DNA from: Patescibacteria group bacterium
GTDB taxonomy: Bacteria; Patescibacteriota; Patescibacteriia; JBAZBY01
Reading direction: 5' to 3'
NCBI GenBank assembly: GCA_041671225.1
Contig: JBAZBY010000001.1
Coordinates: 763,454 to 827,453 of the forward strand
Length of the DNA stretch: 64,000 nucleotides
Shown: positions 3,275 through 17,786 of the stretch, one piece after another
Position numbering within the stretch: position 1 is the first letter of the stretch
How the letters are laid out: every line of letters begins with the position of its first letter
Made by a program: the position numbers and the translations under genes
The notes under the pieces: generated by a model
Told to the model about the DNA's origin: nothing
Seen by the model: the letters and a program-made list of their open reading frames with translations, nothing else
Database searches by the model: none

Positions 3275-4195
3275 ATGTGGCATACCACTAAACGCGCATT
3301 TCTCTTTGCTGGTCAGAATTTCATACGAAATTTCTGGCTCTCTTTGGTAACGCTGCTGATTATGGTGCTCACATTGTTCATGATAACAACACTTGCGGGC
3401 GTGCAGCTTGTTTCGACTGAGGCGATTCGCTCTGTTGAAAATCAAGTGGATGTGACGGTGTACTTTGAGCCAGAGACTCCGGAATCTGTGGTATTTGATG
3501 TGCAGGAAGGTTTGCTTGCTGATAGTCGCGTGGAAGGCGTTCGTTTTGTTTCCCGTACAGAGGCTCTAGCGGAATTCAGGGAAAAAAATCAGGATAATCC
3601 ACTACTTCTTGACGCTATTGAGGCATTAGAGACAAACCCACTTGGTCCAACACTTGTTGTGAAGGCAGTGCAGCTTGCTGACTATGCAGAGATTCTTAAA
3701 GCGCTTGAAACCGAGGATGTCTCTCGTTTTATTCAGGATGAAGGAAGAGACTTTGAAGAAACAGCACTTGTCGTTGAGCGGCTTTCTGGCATCACTGACC
3801 GACTACGTCAGATCGGCCTCATTGTGTCCTCGGTGTTTGTGTTGATCGCGATGATGATGACGGTGAACACTATTCGTATTGCGATTTACACGCACCGCGA
3901 GGAAATAGCCATCATGAAGCTTGTGGGCGCAACAAATGGTTTTATACGCGCACCATTTATCATTGAGTCTCTGTATTATGCGGTGCTCGGAGCGATCATT
4001 ACGACGCTGCTTTTCCTGCCGATGATCGGCCTTGTTGACGCGTGGCTTGGTGGTTTTTTTGCCGGTTATGAACTCGGCGTGGTTGAACTCTTACAAAACA
4101 ACCTGCTCTGGTTTTTCCTGGGGCAGCTGGCCTTTGCGGTTTTTCTTTCTGCGCTTTCAGCGGCAATTGCTGTTGGCAGGTACTTGCGAGTTTAA
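3275..4195 (+). CDS. ftsX: cell division permease FtsX
   Basis: The gene is adjacent to ftsE. The product has an N-terminal TM helix, a periplasmic domain and three C-terminal TM helices (FtsX topology). Confidence 0.75.
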   Translation: MWHTTKRAFLFAGQNFIRNFWLSLVTLLIMVLTLFMITTLAGVQLVSTEAIRSVENQVDVTVYFEPETPESVVFDVQEGLLADSRVEGVRFVSRTEALAEFREKNQDNPLLLDAIEALETNPLGPTLVVKAVQLADYAEILKALETEDVSRFIQDEGRDFEETALVVERLSGITDRLRQIGLIVSSVFVLIAMMMTVNTIRIAIYTHREEIAIMKLVGATNGFIRAPFIIESLYYAVLGAIITTLLFLPMIGLVDAWLGGFFAGYELGVVELLQNNLLWFFLGQLAFAVFLSALSAAIAVGRYLRV

Positions 4196-4554
4196 AAGTA
4201 GCTTTTGTCTTCTGGTGCCTGCGCTTTCGTTATAACCTCCTGCACGTCTGGCGGATAGATTTTTGTGATGCAAAATATTCCCGATGTTGTTTTCTTTTCA
4301 GCGTGAATGGTTTGTTCCAGTATATGCGCTTCTCCCCAGAAGAGCCATTTGCCGTCGATGTTCTGAACAAGATGCACGCGTACTGGCGCGGGCTGGTACA
4401 GCCGCATATCCTTTTTCTCAAATGGGAATGTCATGCCAGAAAAATCCTCAGTGGTGAAAGGCGTCTGCAGATGCTTCTCCAATATAAGCGCAGCAGGAAA
4501 TCCTTGTTCCTGCGTTATCTGCAATGTGTCGTTTATTTCGATAAAGCTACCCAT
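4192..4554 (-). CDS. hypothetical protein
   Basis: A 120-aa ORF with no recognisable motif. Confidence 0.35.
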   Translation of the reverse strand: MGSFIEINDTLQITQEQGFPAALILEKHLQTPFTTEDFSGMTFPFEKKDMRLYQPAPVRVHLVQNIDGKWLFWGEAHILEQTIHAEKKTTSGIFCITKIYPPDVQEVITKAQAPEDKSYF

Positions 4555-4761
4555 TAACGACTTATCAACATAAATCCAAGCAGCATGAGACTCGCAAGAA
4601 CGCAGAGACTGATAAGGTGACTATCTTTTGCTAGTGGATTTTCCATGAGAATAGTATAGCGTTTTTTTGTGTCCCCGCAAATGAGAGGGTTTGGTGTCAC
4701 GCTTGCGGCACGTGGCTTTGCTCGCCATGAACCTGAACGAACGGAGTGAGTGAATGGTTTA

Positions 4762-4774
4762 TGGCTCGGGGACA
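4762..4774. repeat. 13-nt direct copy (TGGCTCGGGGACA) of the tRNA-Gln 3' end; candidate distal att/direct repeat of the island
   Basis: Identical to 12127-12139 (the reverse complement of the tRNA 3' terminus including CCA). A chance 13-mer match within 64 kb is unlikely (about 0.002). Confidence 0.55.
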
Positions 4775-4989
4775 ACTTGTCCGCCTCTGGCGGAGGGATT
4801 TATCGCCTCGCCCCGCGCCTAGCGGTGCTCGTTGTCCGGGGCAGCAGTGAACGCTGCGCCAGCTCGCGTTCCCTGATCGCTCGCCGTCGCCACGCCTTCG
4901 GCAAGTGGCTTGGCTCGCTTCTGCCCGGTTCGAATCCTCCATAAACAAAAAAGGTTCTGCCGCCCGCAGACGGGCGCCAAAACCTTTTT

Positions 4990-5177
4990 GGCTCTCTTTA
5001 CTGTGCGCCGCGCGAACCTATTTTGAGACGCAGGAAGGAAAAAACGGGGAAAAATGAAAAAATCTTCTCTTGGAGGGGCGGGGCGGAATTCCCCCCAAAC
5101 CCCCCTTCCGCCCCGCCCCTTTTCTTGGGCGCGAAAATCTGAGAGTACGAAGATCTTTGTTTTACTACCGTCGCTTC
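4990..5177. repeat. 188-bp inverted repeat, arm A (perfect reverse complement of 10276-10463)
   Basis: Verified by direct reverse-complement comparison. It contains the GGGGCGGGGCGGAATTCCCCCCAAACCCCCCTTCCGCCCCGCCCC G-rich palindrome. Confidence 0.9.
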
Positions 5178-5302: not shown

Positions 5303-7666
5303 TTAGTATTTTTGATAAATGGTGTTAAAGTCTGTAATTTTTCCTTTAAGCTGTGAAAGGCCGTGGTCGTCGCCCACATCAACATGAGAAGTAGTCCAAT
5401 TACAAAAAGAATATATATTCTTGATCTTATCCAAATCGTCGTCAGAAACTTGCTTATTTGTTTTTATGCCATCTACAACTTTTGGAAAGTCCTGCAATAC
5501 ATCAAGGTGTAGGAGACGGCATTTAATAAAGTTTTCAGTCTCGTATCTTAAATATTGGCCATACTCAACTATTTGAAGTTCAACATCAAAACCATTCTGG
5601 TTTTGTCCAAGTTGCAATAAATGTTCCTCAAAGTTGGTAAGTTTTTCAATGAACCTTTGCGTCATGCTTTTACAAATAAAGCTCCCGCCAAATCTCTTTT
5701 CGTTTCTTAGAATGTTGTATTCAAGTGATTGATCGCGGAATTTTTTGCGCAGAAACTTAAAAAATGTTCTGTGGTGAGTAAAAACAAATGTTTGTGAGAA
5801 TTTGTCTTTTTCAGTAGCAATCAAATCTACCAAGCTACTCAAGTTGCTATCGTCTAAACTTGTAATAGGATCGTCAAAGATAAGAATTTTCTTATCCTCA
5901 TCTTTCTGAATATCAAGGAAGGCAAAAAAGAAGCAGAGTGATAGAACCTGTATCTCGCCTTCCGACAGTCCTTCTTTAAGATCTCTTTCGGTCCCGTCAG
6001 AATCAATGACCCTAAACGCTAAAGGCAACTCTTTTGTAGAACCTGTGTGGCGATTGTCTGTATCAAGTTCTAAAGTAAAACTAAATTTGAAATTGCTAAA
6101 ATAGGATTCAATTTTTCGGAGTGTTTTTTTAAAAGCACCCTTAGCGCAATACTCCTCGTAGGATTCTCTTGCTATTTTGTGGGCTTCTCGTGCCTTCTCA
6201 AGCGACCTTATTAACTTGTTTAATTCTTTTAGTTGTTGGAGTTTGAACTTATTACTTTCAATCTTATTACTATTGATAAACCCCAACTCCCGCTCAATAT
6301 CATTCAAATTTCTTTGATTCTTTTCGATTCTACCAGCTAATTTTTCATCAGTATGCTCCTTTTTGAAATTTCTAATAAGCTTATTCTTGGCTTTTACAAA
6401 GCGCGCAAGTTCTAAAAAATATTTTTTTAGATTACTAAACTCATCTCGCGCCTCGCCAAACAGAATGGATATATCCTCTTTGGTAGGTTTCCCAAGATTA
6501 ACAAGTTTTGTTTTTAACTCGCCGATCTTTTTTAGGGTCGGTAATTTTCTAAAATATTCCTCCTTTTCTATGTCGTAAAGTCCTTTTATGGTATATTGTT
6601 CAACGAGCTTCTTCATTTTGATAAAATAATCGTCCAACTCAAACTCGTTGAGTGCCTCTTGTACTTGTTCCAGCTCTGCTATTAAGGTTTCCTTGTATTT
6701 TTCAAACTGACCCTCCTGCTCCTTATAAGATTCATCATAAATTTGATTGTAAGTTTTGACTATCTGTTTTATTTCTTCCTCTCTATTTTGCGTCCCGCAA
6801 AACGGGCATTGATTTGGGTGTTCATCTCTTACATCAAACCCCATTTCAAAAAATTCTTTATGTTTTTTAATCTGCTCAACCAAACTACGCTCGGCCTCCA
6901 CTTTTGCACGCTCTTTTAGTTTGAAATTAAAAACTTTCTGATAGGAAGTTTTTGAGGAGAGGTTAAACTCGATATCAACTTCCTCTAATTCTTGTATGAC
7001 TTGAACTTCCCTCGTCTTTTGCAAGAGCTGACTATCAAGTTCTAGTTCGTTGGACAAATCCACCCTCTTTTGACCGAGTTCTTCCCTTATGTTCTTAGTA
7101 GTATTTTCGTCCTTTCGTTTATACTTTCTAAAAAGTCTTTCCCCATCTTCATCTAATTCAAAACCAAGAACCCGTTTATTGCTTGTCTTAAAGTCATCAA
7201 GTTTCTGATTTTTCTCCTCCTTTATTCCAGCCAATCTATCCCTAACCTTGCGAAGTTCAATGGCATCGCCGTCAAACTCTATGACGAGGTTTCCGGATTC
7301 TTGCTCCTGTTCACCTTGCTGTGTACCTCGTTCACGGCCAAGATGAACATGCCTATCCACAAATTCCCGGTCAAAAAATAATATAGAATCTTTCGGAATA
7401 TAATCATCCCACTTATCCTCAGTGCGAGTATATTTATACCTCTTACTATCAATCAATACTTGCGCTTCTTCAGGGTAGCATTTAGTAAATTTTTTATTTT
7501 GAGATACGCTTTTAAGAATGTTACAAATTGAACTTTTTCCGCTTCCGTTCTCGCCATATAAAATGTTGGTCTTTTGGTGGAAATTCTCGGTATTAAAAAA
7601 ATTATGCCAAGAAAAATCTTGGAATGATTTATAACTTTTTATCTTCTTGATTTGCTTGAGTTTCAT
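5303..7666 (-). CDS. AAA_13-family ABC-type ATPase with a long coiled coil and Rad50-like CxxC zinc hook (RloC/PrrC-like; candidate anticodon nuclease or defence ATPase)
   Basis: Walker A GENGSGKSS at the N-terminus. A lysine/glutamate-rich coiled coil of about 450 aa has CPFCG at its centre. Walker B ILIFDDPITSLD and the H-loop FTHH follow. A C-terminal extension of about 170 aa contains RLLH. The gene is AT-rich (about 35% GC). Confidence 0.65.
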   Translation of the reverse strand: MKLKQIKKIKSYKSFQDFSWHNFFNTENFHQKTNILYGENGSGKSSICNILKSVSQNKKFTKCYPEEAQVLIDSKRYKYTRTEDKWDDYIPKDSILFFDREFVDRHVHLGRERGTQQGEQEQESGNLVIEFDGDAIELRKVRDRLAGIKEEKNQKLDDFKTSNKRVLGFELDEDGERLFRKYKRKDENTTKNIREELGQKRVDLSNELELDSQLLQKTREVQVIQELEEVDIEFNLSSKTSYQKVFNFKLKERAKVEAERSLVEQIKKHKEFFEMGFDVRDEHPNQCPFCGTQNREEEIKQIVKTYNQIYDESYKEQEGQFEKYKETLIAELEQVQEALNEFELDDYFIKMKKLVEQYTIKGLYDIEKEEYFRKLPTLKKIGELKTKLVNLGKPTKEDISILFGEARDEFSNLKKYFLELARFVKAKNKLIRNFKKEHTDEKLAGRIEKNQRNLNDIERELGFINSNKIESNKFKLQQLKELNKLIRSLEKAREAHKIARESYEEYCAKGAFKKTLRKIESYFSNFKFSFTLELDTDNRHTGSTKELPLAFRVIDSDGTERDLKEGLSEGEIQVLSLCFFFAFLDIQKDEDKKILIFDDPITSLDDSNLSSLVDLIATEKDKFSQTFVFTHHRTFFKFLRKKFRDQSLEYNILRNEKRFGGSFICKSMTQRFIEKLTNFEEHLLQLGQNQNGFDVELQIVEYGQYLRYETENFIKCRLLHLDVLQDFPKVVDGIKTNKQVSDDDLDKIKNIYSFCNWTTSHVDVGDDHGLSQLKGKITDFNTIYQKY

Positions 7667-7692: not shown

Positions 7693-8862
7693 TTACCGAT
7701 TTCCTTTTGCTCTATTGTGTGTTTTACACAGCATCTCACAATTCTTCGCCGAAGTAGCACCGCCCTTGCTCCACGCTGATACATGGTCTGCTTCCATTTC
7801 GCCAAAACCCCAAATCTTGCTTTTGTTAGCATCATGCCCAACGGCGCAAAGCGAGCAGTTTGACTTCTCTTTGGTTTCAGCCTCTTTGGTTTGTTTAGCA
7901 TAAACAGATCGTTTGGTCGCCTCATCAAAAAATCGGACATCTAGCAATTTTGTATCAACGGAGCCACCGAGAATGTATTCAAAAATGCCTCTGCGATTTT
8001 TGATATACGGATCACCATAGAGCTTATGCACCTCAGCCGATACTTTGGCTGGGTTATATGATTTTTTGTGATACTCCCCGTAAAGTCGTCCCCATTCAAG
8101 CCCGCGCATTTCGCTTTCTACGTCGGTAAATACGCCAGATACCCAATCAATGACGGTGTTAAAGTATTTTTTCAGCTCATCAATGTTTTTGTCTTTGCGA
8201 TGCTTGCTCATGTAATCGCCAATATTGCCTTTGCTAACCCAATCCAAAGCACATTCCAAAAATTCCTGTCGGTTCGCACTACCGGATACATATGCGCTCC
8301 ATTTTTGAATGTTGGCGTTTTGGCTATTGCTAAATTCTTCTTTAGCCCTAGTTACGAATGGACCGGAATACACGGCGTTGAGTAACTCCTGATTATTAAG
8401 TGGAACACCAGCAATATTTATGGTCTTGAACCATTCTTTTATCTGACTCTCTGTTCCTTCACATTCGTAAATGAGTAGTTTCGTTTCCAAAATCTTGGCT
8501 TGTTTGTCTTTTGCCATGCCACCAAAGTATTGTTCCATGCCATTTTCGTCCTTGATGGCAAATTTGTCCGTGATAAATCGTCCGAGACTTGTGATGCGCT
8601 GTTGTCCATCTAAAACTTCTAGGTTGTCGGCGGAGACGATATTAAAATAAATCAATCCGATTGGGTATCCCTTGAGAACTGATTCGATGACGGCCATTTC
8701 TCTTTTTCCGCCATCAGATGCATAAATATAATTTCGTTGATACTCCGGTTGGATGGTAAGCTTGCCAGACAAGCCAAACAGACCCTTACCCTCAAGTTCG
8801 TTATAGACAAATCCGTCACAGATCTCTTGAACAGTTACATTGGTTTTTAGGGTTGTTTTCAT
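7693..8862 (-). CDS. DUF262 (ParB-like NTPase/nuclease) domain fused to a C-terminal HNH nuclease; GmrSD-like type IV restriction enzyme candidate
   Basis: The N-terminal DGQQR motif ([13 protein letters not shown]) is typical of DUF262. The C-terminal HNH motif is CSLCAVGHD...[11 protein letters not shown]...[15 protein letters not shown]. Confidence 0.7.
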
Positions 8863-9995: not shown

Positions 9996-10244
9996 TTACC
10001 TCAAAAGCTCGTCGCTCGTTACTCCCAACGCTTGAGCTATTTTCTCAATGGTGGCAAGCGTGGGGTTGCCTTTGCCCGATTCAATATTGCTCATTTGAGC
10101 ACGATCAAGCCCTACCGCACGGCAAACGTCGCCTTGCGACATTTCCTTTTGCTCGCGTATGCGCTTGATATTTTTACCAAGTCTGGACGTTGGGGTTCTT
10201 ATATTCACAGATGTAATATAGCCAGATATTGTGTCGTATGACAA
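9996..10244 (-). CDS. XRE-family helix-turn-helix transcriptional regulator (controller-like)
   Basis: LGKNIKRIREQKEMSQGDVCRAVGLDRAQMSNIESGKGNPTLATIEKIAQALGVTSDELL is a canonical HTH_XRE domain. It is the first gene of the minus-strand cassette. Confidence 0.75.
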   Translation of the reverse strand: MSYDTISGYITSVNIRTPTSRLGKNIKRIREQKEMSQGDVCRAVGLDRAQMSNIESGKGNPTLATIEKIAQALGVTSDELLR

Positions 10245-10275: not shown

Positions 10276-10463
10276 GAAGCGACGGTAGTAAAACAAAGAT
10301 CTTCGTACTCTCAGATTTTCGCGCCCAAGAAAAGGGGCGGGGCGGAAGGGGGGTTTGGGGGGAATTCCGCCCCGCCCCTCCAAGAGAAGATTTTTTCATT
10401 TTTCCCCGTTTTTTCCTTCCTGCGTCTCAAAATAGGTTCGCGCGGCGCACAGTAAAGAGAGCC
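10276..10463. repeat. 188-bp inverted repeat, arm A' (reverse complement of 4990-5177)
   Basis: Perfect match over 188 bp. The likely promoter region of the HTH gene lies inside this arm. Confidence 0.9.
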
Positions 10464-10531
10464 AGCTCATACTTCTGGAATTTTCCGCCAAAATTTTCCA
10501 CGGCTTTTCCCAAGTCCACAGGGGCTTTCTG
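10459..10531. repeat. 73-bp inverted repeat, arm B (reverse complement of 12060-12132), with an imperfect extension to about 10557
   Basis: Verified by reverse-complement comparison. It shares the 5-nt GGCTC core (10459-10463) with arm A'. Confidence 0.85.
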
Positions 10532-10677
10532 CCAAGGAGGAGGCGGTTCGTGGCACGGAACGTGCCACCAAGGAATTTCTAAAAAACACATATTAGAAAT
10601 TTCTTGGTTCCAATGTTTTCCACGTTTCCGCCAAAGGCGGAAAGACGAAGCAAGATTTATTCTTCTGGCGAATCCCT

Positions 10678-12159
10678 ATGACATATTTCCTCTACGCAAG
10701 AAAATCCAGCGAGGACGAAGAACGCCAAGTGATGTCCATAGAGGCACAGCTTGTTGAATTGGAACAATTTGCAAAACGTGAGAACCTCACGATTGCCAAG
10801 CAGTTTGTGGAGAGTAAAAGTGCAAAAGCACCCGGCCGCGAAGTGTTCAACCACATGCTTTCCGCAATCTACAAAAGCAAGGAACCCGTTGGCATTCTTG
10901 CGTGGCATCCGGATCGTCTCGCGCGCAATTCCGTTGACGGCGGCCAAATCATTTATCTCGTTGATACTGGGAAGGTCATTGCGCTCAAGTTCCCGACATT
11001 TTGGTTTGAACCAACGCCGCAAGGATTGTTCATGTTGCAGGTGGCATTCGGGCAATCGAAATACTATTCAGACAACTTGTCCGAGAACGTAAAACGCGGG
11101 ATTCGCCAGAAGCTCCGCAAAGGAGAATGGCCCGGCCCTGCGCCGTTCGGATATGTGAATAATCGAAACACGCATAGTATTGATCCGGATCCGGTGAAAG
11201 CAAAAATCGTCCGGCGTATCTTTGAGGAGTATGCAACCGGAGAATACAACCTCCGCACGATTGGAGAACACTTTGCACTCTGGGGCGTGGTGAGCGCGTC
11301 CGGCAAACCTTTGGCAAAATCCACCCTGAAGCATCTGCTTACGCACCAAGCATATATTGGAACGATTATTTGGAGTGGTGAGCCGTATGAAGGTTCATTC
11401 CCGCCGTTGGTGCCAAAGGACGTGTTTGAGACCGTCCAGCACGTCATAAAAAGCCAAGAGAAGCGCAGGTACGTCCGCCGGAAGCATGATTTCTCATTCC
11501 TTGGCCTATTCCGCTGTGGAGAATGCGGCGGGGCGATTACGGCTCAACTTGCCAAGGGAAACGGCGGCACATACCGCTATTATCGTTGCACCAAAAAGTT
11601 TGGCCTGTGTAAACAGGGTTACATTCAGGAAAGTGATTTTGCAGTGCTTTTGAGAAAGGAAGTTAATCGTGTTGCGATTAACGAGCAGTGCGCCTCGCGC
11701 ATGCTTGAACAAGTGAAACTGTGGGAACGTGAAGAAAACGTTGATGGCGAAAAACATACGCGCGAAAGAAAAACGAAGTTGGAAGTGATTGACCAAAAAC
11801 TTGATACCCTCGTTAACGCCTTTCTTGAAGGTACGTTAGAAAAGGAAACCTACCTCAAAAAGAAAGCCGAACTAATTGACGCCAAAGCTGGCCTTCGGGA
11901 AGAAAAGGTATCTTTACAAGCGCGAGGCGCACAATGGATCGAACCACTACGAAACTGGATAAACCGCGCTCACCACGCCCAAAATCTTGCTTCGTCTGAT
12001 GATTTGAGCAAACTCAAATCATTCGTGGAAAACATTGGAACGAACCGCCTCCTCCTCGACAGAAAGCCCCTGTGGACTTGGGAAAAGCCGTGGAAAATTT
12101 TGGCGGAAAATTCCAGAAGTATGAGCTGGCTCGGGGACAGGGATTCGAACCCCGATTGA
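10678..12159 (+). CDS. large serine recombinase (integrase/resolvase family)
   Basis: The N-terminal resolvase catalytic domain is YARKSSEDEERQVMSIEAQ...AWHPDRLARN. A recombinase domain and a zinc ribbon (CGECGG...YYRCTKKFGLC) follow, then a C-terminal coiled coil. The last 33 nt overlap the tRNA 3' end and the att arm, so the true stop may lie earlier. Confidence 0.85.
   Translation: MTYFLYARKSSEDEERQVMSIEAQLVELEQFAKRENLTIAKQFVESKSAKAPGREVFNHMLSAIYKSKEPVGILAWHPDRLARNSVDGGQIIYLVDTGKVIALKFPTFWFEPTPQGLFMLQVAFGQSKYYSDNLSENVKRGIRQKLRKGEWPGPAPFGYVNNRNTHSIDPDPVKAKIVRRIFEEYATGEYNLRTIGEHFALWGVVSASGKPLAKSTLKHLLTHQAYIGTIIWSGEPYEGSFPPLVPKDVFETVQHVIKSQEKRRYVRRKHDFSFLGLFRCGECGGAITAQLAKGNGGTYRYYRCTKKFGLCKQGYIQESDFAVLLRKEVNRVAINEQCASRMLEQVKLWEREENVDGEKHTRERKTKLEVIDQKLDTLVNAFLEGTLEKETYLKKKAELIDAKAGLREEKVSLQARGAQWIEPLRNWINRAHHAQNLASSDDLSKLKSFVENIGTNRLLLDRKPLWTWEKPWKILAENSRSMSWLGDRDSNPD
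12060..12132. repeat. 73-bp inverted repeat, arm B'; abuts and includes the last 5 nt of tRNA-Gln
   Basis: Perfect reverse complement of 10459-10531. An imperfect extension runs from 12033 to 12059. Confidence 0.85.
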
Positions 12160-15456: not shown

Positions 15457-15635
15457 ACCTTTTGCCCGCGCAACAGACTCATTGTTTTGCATCTGCCAGA
15501 GCCGCAAGAAGAGGTTTTTTGGGTATTGACATACGCGATAAGAAGTGTAGTGTCCTATTGCAGTTTACGCGCAATCCCGTCCAAAGGGGTTGATTTCAAT
15601 GCCCTTTGACAGGTGAAAAACCTGGAGAAGGGGGG

Positions 15636-17786
15636 ATGCTAACCATGAGGAGAAACGGCATGAGACGGAACGTGAAGTTCTCTATGCTCATCGCAGCGGC
15701 GGCCATCTTGCTGGCAGCTGCTACGGCGAGTGCCACGACATATGTTGTGAAACCTGACGGCACGGGGGACTACCCCACCATCCAGGCGGCGATCGCGGCT
15801 GTCGCCAACGGCAGCATCATCGAGCTCACCGACGGCACCTTCATTGGTGCCGGCAATCGTGACATCGACTTCGCGGGAAAGGCGATCACAGTCCGTTCCC
15901 AAAGCGGGAACGCGGAAGCCTGTGTTATTGATTGCCAGGGGTCGATGTCTACGCCTTACATCGGAGTCTACTTCGACTCTGGTGAGGGCGTGAACTCCAA
16001 GCTGGCCGATATCAAGATAATCAACGGTTTCAGCAGTTTCACCTATCAGCCGTTGGCGATCTACGTGTATAGCGCTGGCCCAACGATTGACGGATGTGTC
16101 TTCGTGGACAACGGGATCTATGTCTCTGGGTATGCGAGTCCGCAGTTCGTGCGGAACACATTCCGGGACTTCAACTCGGGCGGGATGATGCAGCCTCCGA
16201 TTTCCGTGACGAACACAAGCTCAAGCGTGGCAACGTTGACCATCGAGGACAATGTGTTCAAGGACTGCACATTCGGTGGCCAGTACTCGTCTGGGACAGC
16301 GATCTCGGTGAGCGGGACGGGGTCGGCCACCAACACTGCCTACATCAGACGCAACGTCTTCGAAAATCTCAACGGAACCGCAGTCGCTCTAGGTGGAACC
16401 GGCGATGTCACGGTCTGGGGTCATCTCGACGACAACGTCATCAAGGCGTGCGGCAACTCGATGATGTCCACTCCGGCCGTAAGCATTTCTACCAACAGTA
16501 CCTCGGACACCCACATGCTTATGTCAGGCAACGTCTTCGTTGACTGCCAGTCAGCCGCCATCAAGACCTGGGGGTACAACCCCAACATCTGGGTAGCGGT
16601 TGATTCCACGACCATTACAGGTTGTGATGCTGGGATCATCAAGGGTACCGCGGTGGCGTCGCTGGCCATCAGCCACACCATCCTGTGGAACACCGATGAC
16701 CTGAACGGCGTGCTGTCGTCCGAAGTCAGCTGTTCCGATATCGGCAACGGCGACTTCCTCGGCGTGAACGGTAACTTCAGTGACGATCCGATGTTCTGCG
16801 ACGCAGCGAACGGAGACTTCCAGATCAACGTTAAGTCGTCGTGCGTCACTGGGTACGGTTGCGGGTTGGTCGGTGCTCTGGGGGTTGGCTGCGATGTCGT
16901 GATCACCGAGGTCAAGGACATCCCGAACGATCAAGGACGGCGTGTGCTTGGTACGTGGCTGGCGGCTTTTGCCGATACTGGCAGCGTGTCCGAGTACACC
17001 ATCTGGGGAAAGTACGAGTACAGTGCCAAGGGTGACCTCACCACGCTCTCGTATCCGCCCGGCACGTGGTACTACGTCATGACTGTCCCGGCTTGCGAGG
17101 AGAGTGTGTACAGTGCAGTATGGCCGACGCTGGCAGATTCGAATGCGGCCGGCATGCAGTACAGCACGTTCTTCGTGAGAGCCAAGATCGGGAACTCGTA
17201 TCTGGATTCGGATCCTGCTTCTGGCTACTCGGTGGACAATCTTCCGCCCAGCGTCCCGGGAGGATTCGCTGGGGAGTTCGATGCCGGCTTGACGGTTCTG
17301 ACGTGGGATGAGGCCCTGGAGGGGGATTTCAACCACTACAAGGTCTACAGCGGGTCGAGCGCCGACTTCATCCCCGGGCCCGGCAACCTGCTGGGTGCGG
17401 TGATTGAACCGACGTTCTCTGATGCCAGTTGGGGGCTGTATTACAAGGTGAGCGTCGTGGACTTCAACGGCAACGAGAGCGCCTTCGCGCTCTTGAGGCC
17501 GGAAGAAGTCACAGGCGTGAAGGAGACCGGCGCGGTACCGGTGATGGCGCTTGCGCCGCTCACCAATCCGCTCCGGGGGCAGATGTCCCTCTCGTTCTCA
17601 CTCGCCTCGGACCTGCCGGGGGAGATCGTCGTCTATGATCTCGCCGGACGTCGCGTGGCCGGGAAGCGGGTCTCGGGTGCCGGTGCGCAGACGATGTCCT
17701 TCGGCGACTTGCCGTCGGGTATCTACTGGGCACGCCTTACCCAAGGCGTGGCCCAGGTGACGGCCAAGGTGGTCGTCATCCAGTAG
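15636..17786 (+). CDS. secreted right-handed parallel beta-helix protein with a C-terminal FlgD-Ig/T9SS-type sorting domain
   Basis: SD GGAGAAGGGGGG precedes the ATG at 15636. The signal peptide is MLIAAAAILLAAATASA. Repetitive beta-helix-like G/N/T-rich segments follow. The C-terminal tail EIVVYDLAGRRVAGKRV...LPSGIYWARL...AKVVVIQ is the sorting domain. GC is about 62%. Confidence 0.6.
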   Translation: MLTMRRNGMRRNVKFSMLIAAAAILLAAATASATTYVVKPDGTGDYPTIQAAIAAVANGSIIELTDGTFIGAGNRDIDFAGKAITVRSQSGNAEACVIDCQGSMSTPYIGVYFDSGEGVNSKLADIKIINGFSSFTYQPLAIYVYSAGPTIDGCVFVDNGIYVSGYASPQFVRNTFRDFNSGGMMQPPISVTNTSSSVATLTIEDNVFKDCTFGGQYSSGTAISVSGTGSATNTAYIRRNVFENLNGTAVALGGTGDVTVWGHLDDNVIKACGNSMMSTPAVSISTNSTSDTHMLMSGNVFVDCQSAAIKTWGYNPNIWVAVDSTTITGCDAGIIKGTAVASLAISHTILWNTDDLNGVLSSEVSCSDIGNGDFLGVNGNFSDDPMFCDAANGDFQINVKSSCVTGYGCGLVGALGVGCDVVITEVKDIPNDQGRRVLGTWLAAFADTGSVSEYTIWGKYEYSAKGDLTTLSYPPGTWYYVMTVPACEESVYSAVWPTLADSNAAGMQYSTFFVRAKIGNSYLDSDPASGYSVDNLPPSVPGGFAGEFDAGLTVLTWDEALEGDFNHYKVYSGSSADFIPGPGNLLGAVIEPTFSDASWGLYYKVSVVDFNGNESAFALLRPEEVTGVKETGAVPVMALAPLTNPLRGQMSLSFSLASDLPGEIVVYDLAGRRVAGKRVSGAGAQTMSFGDLPSGIYWARLTQGVAQVTAKVVVIQ

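Follow-up and report, generated by a model that had tools for sequence, protein, structure and literature searches.

A zinc-hook ATPase at the end of a restriction-modification operon

The DNA analysed here (the window) is a stretch of 64,000 nucleotides (nt) from an assembly of a Patescibacteria group bacterium (GCA_041671225.1, contig JBAZBY010000001.1, positions 763,454 to 827,453), and the gene in question, at 5303-7666, encodes a protein of 787 amino acids (aa) related to the anticodon nuclease RloC. An initial annotation, made from the letters alone, had described it as an ATP-binding cassette (ABC) ATPase with a zinc hook in the middle of its coiled coil and a C-terminal candidate tRNA nuclease. 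The open reading frame (ORF) is real, starting with ATG, and every motif quoted in that description was found in it, on the minus strand, which the description had not specified. The initial annotation mentioned neither the signature-like LSEGE nor the setting of the gene, a restriction-modification (R-M) operon on a mobile cassette (Table 1). This operon runs in the order C-protein, methylase, endonuclease, RloC, all co-directional with gaps of 4, 1 and 26 nt, so that the RloC-like gene is fourth and last.

The ABC head of the protein is Rad50-like and split, with the Walker A and Walker B motifs ~550 residues apart. A coiled coil of about 450 residues had been proposed between them and a coiled coil is indeed present, although the insert itself measures ~400 residues, of which 78% are helical (DSSP on the AlphaFold model) and 41% charged. 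As had been claimed, the CxxC motif is roughly central, lying at ~42% of the insert in a 13-residue loop (residues 283-295) between helices 270-282 and 296-309 of the model. Downstream of the H-loop there are 155 residues, of which ~35 still belong to the ABC lobe and ~120 (668-787) form a distinct C-terminal domain; an extra domain therefore exists, but it is shorter than the approximately 170 residues originally assigned to it. The full-length AlphaFold model, for which 44 homologues served as input, has a mean predicted local distance difference test score (pLDDT) of 81.7 and reproduces the split ABC head, and the C-terminal domain modelled alone is a helical bundle (pLDDT 87.1, predicted template modelling score 0.82).

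Conservation places the likely functional residues of this domain elsewhere than first thought. A search of 5.8 billion proteins returned 177 relatives, the best 120 of which share 48-91% identity with the protein, are nearly all 775-815 aa long and have Patescibacteria-type metagenome bins as their main source. Scanning all of 1.84 billion cluster representatives yielded 58 matches at E<=1e-30 and 1757 at E<=1e-3. Across 44 homologues (48-85% identity) the invariant positions include C287, P288, F289 and C290 in the hook and R707, Y708, E709, E711, K715, N756, W757, T758, T759, H761 and D763 in the C-terminal domain, with S760 nearly invariant and H631 of the H-loop invariant in this close clade. 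When 21 sequences reaching down to ~20% identity are compared, the ATPase retains N40, K44, S568, F580, D598, D599, P600, D605 and Q625, and the only other positions that remain invariant are C287, P288 and C290 of the hook and L706, R707, E711 and H761 of the C-terminal domain. The RLLH sequence at residues 717-720, which the initial annotation had highlighted in its candidate effector region, is rejected as a catalytic motif, since homologues carry K, D, N, E, T or G in place of R717 and Y or F in place of H720. The conserved C-terminal motifs are instead EYGQYLR707YExE711xFIK715 and FCN756WTTS760H761VD.

Assignment to the RloC family

When the protein is set beside the published description of RloC, the correspondence extends over its whole length. 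The published definition (PMC2610378) asks for the ABC motifs (Walker A, Q-loop region, signature, Walker B/D-loop, H-loop), for a coiled coil that is inserted in the ATPase domain and carries CX2C in its central loop, for an Arg-X3-Glu-X36-52-His triad near the C-terminus, often with Ser before the His, and for 658-897 aa in all, roughly double the size of PrrC. The protein encoded here has the ABC ATPase motifs (GENGSGKSS, LSEGE, ILIFDDPITSLD and FTHH), which are conserved in its homologues; a coiled-coil insert with a central CxxC loop, as judged from the sequence and the model, for which zinc binding is predicted; a C-terminal triad, R707-Y-E-T-E711 followed after 49 residues by S760-H761, that falls inside the published spacing as Arg-X3-Glu-X49-(Ser)His; and a length within the published range. 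The initial annotation had suggested looking for an Arg/Asn/His triad in a predicted structure; the published triad is Arg/Glu/His, and it is these residues that are present in the C-terminal domain.

The same features are shared with the RloC proteins of Geobacillus kaustophilus (GkaRloC) and Acinetobacter baylyi, in which an ABC head is likewise split by a coiled coil with a CxxC hook and followed by the triad in a protein of similar size (PMC2610378, PMC3458546, PMC3874168). The landmarks of GkaRloC, K44, C291, D572, R692, E696 and H737 (PMC2610378), are collinear with K44, C287/C290, D598/D599, R707, E711 and H761 here, a comparison of positions rather than of aligned sequences, and several nearly coincide (K44 in both, C290 against C291, and R707/E711/H761 against R692/E696/H737). 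The paired aspartates of Walker B also have a counterpart in PrrC (D215/D216; PMC3025547). The PrrC/RloC nuclease domains have been classed in the HEPN superfamily, which is characterized by a helical fold with Rx4-6H and Ex3[KR] motifs (PMC3710099); E711-x3-K715 fits the second of these, and the Arg of the first is missing from the protein.

Database matches point in the same direction. Pfam AAA_13 (PF13166) matches residues 24-767 with E=3.6e-34, and because of this span the match includes the C-terminal domain; SMC_N is matched as well. Pfam describes AAA_13 as a family that includes PrrC. At least seven close homologues (52-59% identity) among the matches listed carry the Joint Genome Institute (JGI) name 'wobble nucleotide-excising tRNase', as does one distant relative (P0270, 23% identity). 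The C-terminal domain alone has no Pfam match, and the whole protein has no specific NCBIfam model and no PHROGs match. AAA_13, the published features, the JGI names and the collinear landmarks together uphold the RloC-like reading of the initial annotation. By its sequence the protein belongs to the known RloC family and, within it, to a clade built into R-M operons. It differs from the main group of RloC-like proteins in having N-x4-H rather than N-x5-H before the catalytic His, in lacking an Arg at the Rx4-6H position, and in its low identity to the main-group members that were sampled (~20-23%).

PrrC itself is not a suitable assignment. PrrC proteins are about 340-416 aa long, have no coiled-coil insert, carry the LARP motif KYGDSNKSFSY and are embedded in a type Ic hsd locus, whereas the protein here has 787 aa with a 400-aa insert, the LARP motif is absent and its neighbors are a type II methylase and endonuclease. 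The E. coli PrrC-EcoprrI system is nevertheless among the closest known systems: it has the DD Walker B and the Arg-X3-Glu...His residues, and it is a latent tRNA nuclease within an R-M operon that serves as a second line of defence. PrrC-EcoprrI differs in its size (~400 aa) and the lack of a coiled-coil and hook insert, in having a tRNA-Lys recognition peptide (LARP) and a PrrC box, and in being tied to a type Ic system, where it sits between hsd genes and not at the operon end.

The restriction-modification operon and its relatives

The three genes upstream of the RloC-like gene make up a type II R-M system of the C-protein-controlled kind. Homologues of its 82-aa HTH_3 protein head related cassettes, and an independent 5.4-kilobase (kb) contig from ENA encodes the identical RloC-like protein with the same three genes upstream. 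The cassette has 38% G+C, against 49-56% in its flanks.

Table 1. Features of the RloC-like gene and of the cassette that carries it (positions in the window)
Feature	Position	Strand	Basis
Left arm of perfect 189-nt inverted repeat; palindromic site with 29-nt core at 5083-5111 (+)	4989..5177	.	Repeat search, 100% complementary
rloC-like gene, 787 aa: ABC ATPase head, coiled-coil/zinc-hook insert and C-terminal nuclease-like domain	5303..7666	-	ORF translation, Pfam AAA_13, AlphaFold model
C-terminal domain, residues 668-787: five-helix bundle with R707, E711, K715, N756, S760, H761; predicted anticodon nuclease (HEPN-class)	5306..5665	-	AlphaFold model, conservation
H-loop FTHH, residues 629-632	5771..5782	-	Motif read; H631 conserved in close clade
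Signature-like LSEGE, residues 567-571, then Walker B/D-loop ILIFDDPITSLD, residues 594-605	5852..5968	-	Motif read; conservation
Helical (coiled-coil) insert, residues 120-521	6104..7309	-	DSSP on AlphaFold model; Foldseek
Hook motif C287-P-F-C290-G (CPFCG, residues 287-291), inter-helix loop	6794..6808	-	Conservation; model
Walker A GENGSGKSS, residues 38-46 (K44)	7529..7555	-	Motif read; conservation
DUF262-HNH restriction endonuclease, 389 aa, GmrSD_N (DUF262) + HNH; ends 26 nt upstream of rloC	7693..8862	-	Pfam; PADLOC REase_II E=2.8e-80
EcoRI-type N6-adenine DNA methyltransferase, 375 aa	8864..9991	-	Pfam PF13651 E=6e-128; PADLOC MTase_II
HTH_3 C-protein-like controller, 82 aa, first operon gene	9996..10244	-	Pfam HTH_3 E=1.7e-15; gene call on independent contig L001
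Right arm of 189-nt inverted repeat; core at 10342-10370 (-)	10276..10464	.	Repeat search
Inverted partial copy of recombinase gene 3' end (partner 11982-12132); abuts right arm via 6-nt GAGCCA	10459..10660	.	Repeat search, sequence read
Large serine recombinase, 493 aa, Resolvase + Recombinase + Zn_ribbon_recom	10678..12159	+	Pfam; PHROG integrase E=6.8e-75
tRNA-Gln(TTG); 3' end overlaps recombinase stop codon	12127..12200	-	Rfam 60.4 bits; ARAGORN

The association with R-M genes is a habit of the clade. Pfam analysis of 67 same-strand ORFs upstream of the homologues in 27 species-representative loci returned mainly DNA methylases (24 matches), ResIII, HsdS and named type II endonucleases. 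The individual counts were N6_Mtase 7, N6_N4_Mtase 7, D12 methylase 6, ResIII 5, HsdS 5, Eco57I 5, C5 methylase 3, HaeII 3 and Vsr 3, with TdeIII, AlwI, GmrSD_N and HNH also represented, and in two loci (L003 and L005) a type III Mod-Res pair stands directly upstream of the RloC homologue. In this clade, therefore, the gene habitually comes last in R-M operons, whether of type I, II or III. This agrees with a survey of HEPN proteins in which PrrC/RloC genes were often found in R-M operons (PMC3710099). RloC was described in 2008 as rarely linked to R-M systems, and then to type I or III, whereas genes of this clade mostly close an R-M operon, and the partner here is a C-protein-controlled type II system.

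One related locus shows how the operon is put together. In L107 (198-4535) a C gene is followed by a methylase and an endonuclease that are 67% and 83% identical to those of the window, and then by a 613-aa DUF4209 protein in the place of RloC. It follows that different genes can occupy the fourth position of the operon, and that the R-M pair is separable from RloC.

Proposed function and alternatives

We consider it likely that the protein is an RloC-type anticodon nuclease that acts as a backup to the R-M system with which it is transcribed, a reading that draws on its sequence, the structural model and analogy with characterized relatives. By that analogy, it probably halts translation when restriction fails. 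The steps proposed below are carried over from experiments on the RloC proteins of G. kaustophilus and A. baylyi and on PrrC of E. coli (PMC2610378, PMC3458546, PMC3874168, PMC3025547). Like its relatives, the protein would normally be latent, with the hook joining (dimerizing) two arms through zinc and keeping the nuclease off; in GkaRloC, a C291G mutant is constitutively active. DNA, for example ends arising from broken phage or host DNA or from disturbed restriction, would stimulate the ATPase, and ATP hydrolysis would switch on the C-terminal RNase. This RNase would then cleave the anticodon loops of tRNAs, in the RloC manner by excision of the wobble nucleotide, which would defeat tRNA repair by the phage, and translation would stop so that phage replication is blocked. 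For a protein encoded at the tail of an R-M operon the trigger would be restriction that is overwhelmed or inhibited, as with PrrC.

Several observations count against this interpretation. The Arg of the HEPN Rx4-6H motif, which corresponds to R349 of PrrC and is essential there and reported to be conserved in RloC (PMC3025547), has no counterpart in the protein, where the segment reads F-C-N756-W-T-T-S-H761. The loop that bears H761 is modelled with low confidence in the full-length structure (pLDDT<50 at residues 759-767). With Foldseek, no significant PDB match to the C-terminal domain was obtained (best E=2.2), and the HEPN fold is for this reason not confirmed. The best PADLOC matches cover the ATPase and the coiled coil and not the C-terminal domain, and the identity of the clade to the main body of RloC-like proteins is no more than ~20-23%. 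The support for this clade comes from sequence and modelling.

The alternative that fares best, although we regard it as unlikely, is that the protein is a Rad50/SMC-like DNA sensor that acts on DNA only, tethering or activating the HNH enzyme in the way of LmuB, with the C-terminal domain as an interaction or regulatory module. Several observations lean this way. Foldseek with the whole model matches chains of cohesin, condensin, Rad50, SMC, Lamassu LmuB and JetC; sequence and profile searches of the PDB return SMC and Rad50 heads only, from a copy of the database in which no PrrC or RloC structure is present; and the gene is always located together with DNA-acting enzymes. The protein shares with Rad50, SbcC and phage T4 gp46, which are among its best structural matches, the ABC head, the antiparallel coiled coil and a CP(V/F/L)C(G) zinc hook. 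Its arm is, however, much shorter, there is no gene for an Mre11/SbcD partner nearby, and the conserved 120-aa C-terminal domain, with its nuclease-like character, is extra. Despite the fold matches to Rad50, SMC and LmuB, then, this conserved triad-bearing domain sets the protein apart; a grouping with SbcC/Rad50 without a nuclease-like C-terminal domain, which the initial annotation had named as evidence against its own reading, is not what was found.

The comparison with Lamassu is similar. PADLOC gives significant profile matches to PDC-S06 (3e-29) and LmuB (2.5e-21) over the ATPase and coiled coil, and a role as defence sensor would be common to all of them. Of the 787 residues, 3-645 are covered by the best PDC-S06 match (2-629 of the 790 profile positions) and 142-646 by the LmuB match, so that both end near residue 645 and the C-terminal domain is not shared; moreover, LmuB uses a separate effector protein, and a Pfam scan of the neighborhood detected no LmuA-like gene. 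Against a partner that acts on DNA only, the conserved C-terminal residues are exactly the catalytic Arg, Glu and His of PrrC/RloC at the published spacing, and they stay invariant to ~20% identity. The accompanying R-M systems are of the unrelated types I, II and III, which disfavours a specific partnership with one endonuclease, and the same R-M pair occurs in L107 without an RloC-like protein.

A second alternative, which we rate as rather improbable, accepts an active HEPN-class RNase of the RloC lineage and supposes that its target is not the anticodon loop (mRNA or rRNA, for example), or that it nicks tRNA without excising the wobble nucleotide. The distance of the clade from the RloC proteins that have been tested, the missing Arg of Rx4-6H, the N-x4-H spacing that is one residue shorter than in the main group and the absence of the peptide by which PrrC recognizes the lysine anticodon would all be compatible with this. 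All characterized PrrC/RloC nucleases, however, cut tRNA anticodon loops (PMC2610378, PMC3025547), and no feature of the sequence points to a different substrate. It is highly improbable that the mobile R-M cassette carries the gene as an inactive passenger that is decaying or has been silenced: it does lie on a horizontally acquired low-G+C island, and some RloC orthologues with poor motifs may be inactive according to Davidov & Kaufmann (PMC2610378), but the 787-codon frame is intact, the residues of the ATPase, hook and triad are intact and match the family consensus, three independent contigs encode the identical protein and a 91%-identical relative is full length.

A mobile cassette at a tRNA-Gln gene

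The two arms of the 189-nt inverted repeat bracket exactly the cassette of C-protein, methylase, endonuclease and RloC, with 5098 nt between them. The two ends of L001, a contig assembled independently with megahit, lie exactly 141 nt inside the arms, a distance equal to the k-mer size of that assembly. The repeat is therefore real and not an artefact of the window; an assembly artefact is also made unlikely by similar arms in six other loci. A second inverted repeat abuts the first, pairing 10459-10551 with 12040-12132 (98%), 10604-10624 with 12024-12044 and 10643-10658 with 11982-11997, with the result that the recombinase gene is preceded by an inverted copy of its own 3' end.

The terminal GAGCCA of tRNA-Gln (TGGCTC at 12127-12132) recurs at 4989-4994, and inverted at 10459-10464. 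The simplest reading is that a 7.1-kb element has inserted at the 3' end of the tRNA-Gln gene. On the minus strand past 4989-4994 there is a terminator-like hairpin (4956-4970), which appears to be the terminator that tRNA-Gln originally had and which is now 7 kb from its tRNA. The predicted empty tRNA-Gln site would read ...CCCCGAGCCA and then AAAAAGGTTTTGGCGCC. The internal copy of GAGCCA is flanked by inverted copies of both element ends, that is, it forms an inverted copy of the predicted attP. The RloC operon is cargo of a mobile cassette; the protein itself is an ordinary family member, and it is the cassette carrying the RloC-like gene that is unusual.

Each arm can also form a hairpin (-20.7 kcal/mol, z=-5.1). 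A classical terminator is an unlikely explanation for it, the loop being 17 nt long and the T-run of the window being absent from the copies in L010 and L032, and a search of Rfam for a known RNA found only the tRNA. In the hairpin (5074-5120 and 10333-10379) one strand of the loop reads G6-TTT-G6 beside the GGGGCGGGGCGG stem and has G-quadruplex potential, and the other strand is a C6-AAA-C6 mirror repeat. The 29-nt core within the arms contains GAATTC, an EcoRI site, and the cassette encodes an EcoRI-family methylase; this may be a coincidence, because the same core is found with unrelated R-M systems.

Outside the element, the interval from ftsX to the element's left end contains three small ORFs of 120, 73 and 83 aa (4192-4948, minus strand), two of which were scanned and gave no Pfam, PADLOC or NCBIfam match. 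A flanking protein at 15606-17786 carries a type IX secretion sorting domain (Por_Secre_tail). Together with the 49-56% G+C of the flanks, this domain points to a host of the FCB group (Bacteroidota-like). Since the closest relatives of the 38% G+C cassette are found mostly in Patescibacteria bins, the sequence context suggests that the cassette has moved between phyla.

Recurrence of the arrangement

Comparable arrangements are found in other genomes. Long inverted repeats (95-386 nt) bracket a cassette of R-M and RloC genes in L005, L010, L022, L024, L026 and L032, reaching 386 nt at 100% identity in L010, 335 nt at 98.8% in L026 and 319 nt at 99.4% in L032, and in L022, L026 and L032 a second pair of repeats brackets a homologous recombinase. 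In 15 further loci a convergent tRNA gene adjoins the 3' end of a homologous recombinase gene or overlaps it; these tRNAs are mostly tRNA-Ser, with tRNA-Glu, tRNA-Pro and tRNA-Val also represented.

The repeat arms contain a palindrome of ~50 bp with an invariant 29-nt core, GCGGAATTCCCCCCAAACCCCCCTTCCGC. The outer stem of the palindrome varies between loci while its complementarity is kept: among 88 distinct sites, 8.05 of 11 flanking positions pair, compared with 4.66 +/- 0.25 for shuffled partners. There are 16 different stems with at least nine of the 11 pairs, and some sites are hybrid, with left and right flanks of different classes. Exact copies of the core are present in more than 120 stretches of metagenome sequence (a lower bound; L087-L206) and in one IMG/VR contig, and a census was made of 122 core loci (120 from metagenomes and two from IMG/VR). 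A C-protein homologue is encoded in 53 of these and a homologous recombinase in 28. Relative to the C gene, the core is 145-430 nt upstream and on the same strand in 31/34 cases, and relative to the recombinase gene it is 182-556 nt upstream and on the opposite strand in 20/21 cases; being 5' of both genes, it is situated in the divergent intergenic region between them. An RloC homologue accompanies the core at a single locus of the 122 (L164).

Fourteen loci have two oppositely oriented cores 1.8-8 kb apart, convergent (+ then -) in 13 and the other way round (- then +) in L087. Between them lie N6_N4 methylases (6), ResIII (5), SMODS/CBASS (2) and Shedu SduA (1), along with methylases of the C5 and D12 kinds and a small number of genes unrelated to defence. 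The orientation of the cassette with respect to the recombinase is reversed in L022 and L184 relative to the window and to L026, L032, L131, L135, L159, L160, L178 and L193. This fits what would be expected if cassettes invert, in a comparison of different genomes rather than of cells from one population, and the data as a whole fit recombination at the core, by inversion or by exchange of entire defence cassettes. The palindrome may alternatively be an operator of the C-type regulator, or it may be a structural insulator.

Some elements of this arrangement have precedents. R-M units flanked by long inverted repeats, and units of R-M genes and an integrase at tRNA genes, were described in general terms by Furuta, Abe & Kobayashi (2010, PMC2853133), and these mobile units share with the present one the bracketed R-M genes, the adjacent recombinase and the insertion at a tRNA 3' end. 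The segments inverted by the serine recombinases Gin, Cin, Hin and Pin resemble it in that two inverted sites flank a kilobase-scale segment. The arrangement here differs from both in using a 493-aa large serine recombinase rather than a small invertase or a tyrosine integrase, in having arms with a palindromic 29-nt invariant core common to more than 120 metagenome contigs, and in keeping an inverted copy of the predicted attP inside the element. A limited search of the literature found no description of the 29-nt-core site or of this large-serine-recombinase arrangement. We therefore put forward, tentatively and as a possibility that we would place below even chances, that the RloC operon is cargo of an undescribed family of tRNA-integrating elements in which a large serine recombinase flips or exchanges C-headed defence cassettes at paired 29-nt-core palindromes.

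Implications

The clade described here extends the RloC family into a lineage that is almost always found within R-M operons, whatever their type. This context lends support to a long-standing proposal in which RloC would keep watch over a restriction system as PrrC does, and the compact four-gene unit of C-protein, methylase, endonuclease and RloC is well suited to probing the link between RloC and restriction. If the proposal of a tRNA-integrating element is correct, then R-M systems, RloC, CBASS and Shedu would be interchangeable and switchable cargo, subject to a form of phase variation, in which the C protein would make each re-activation of an R-M cassette safe and RloC would be one optional backup module. 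The carrier element could matter more than the RloC-like protein, and deserves follow-up; should it prove to be a platform for switching or exchange, it would be a new way for bacteria, including Patescibacteria, to toggle or trade costly immune systems.

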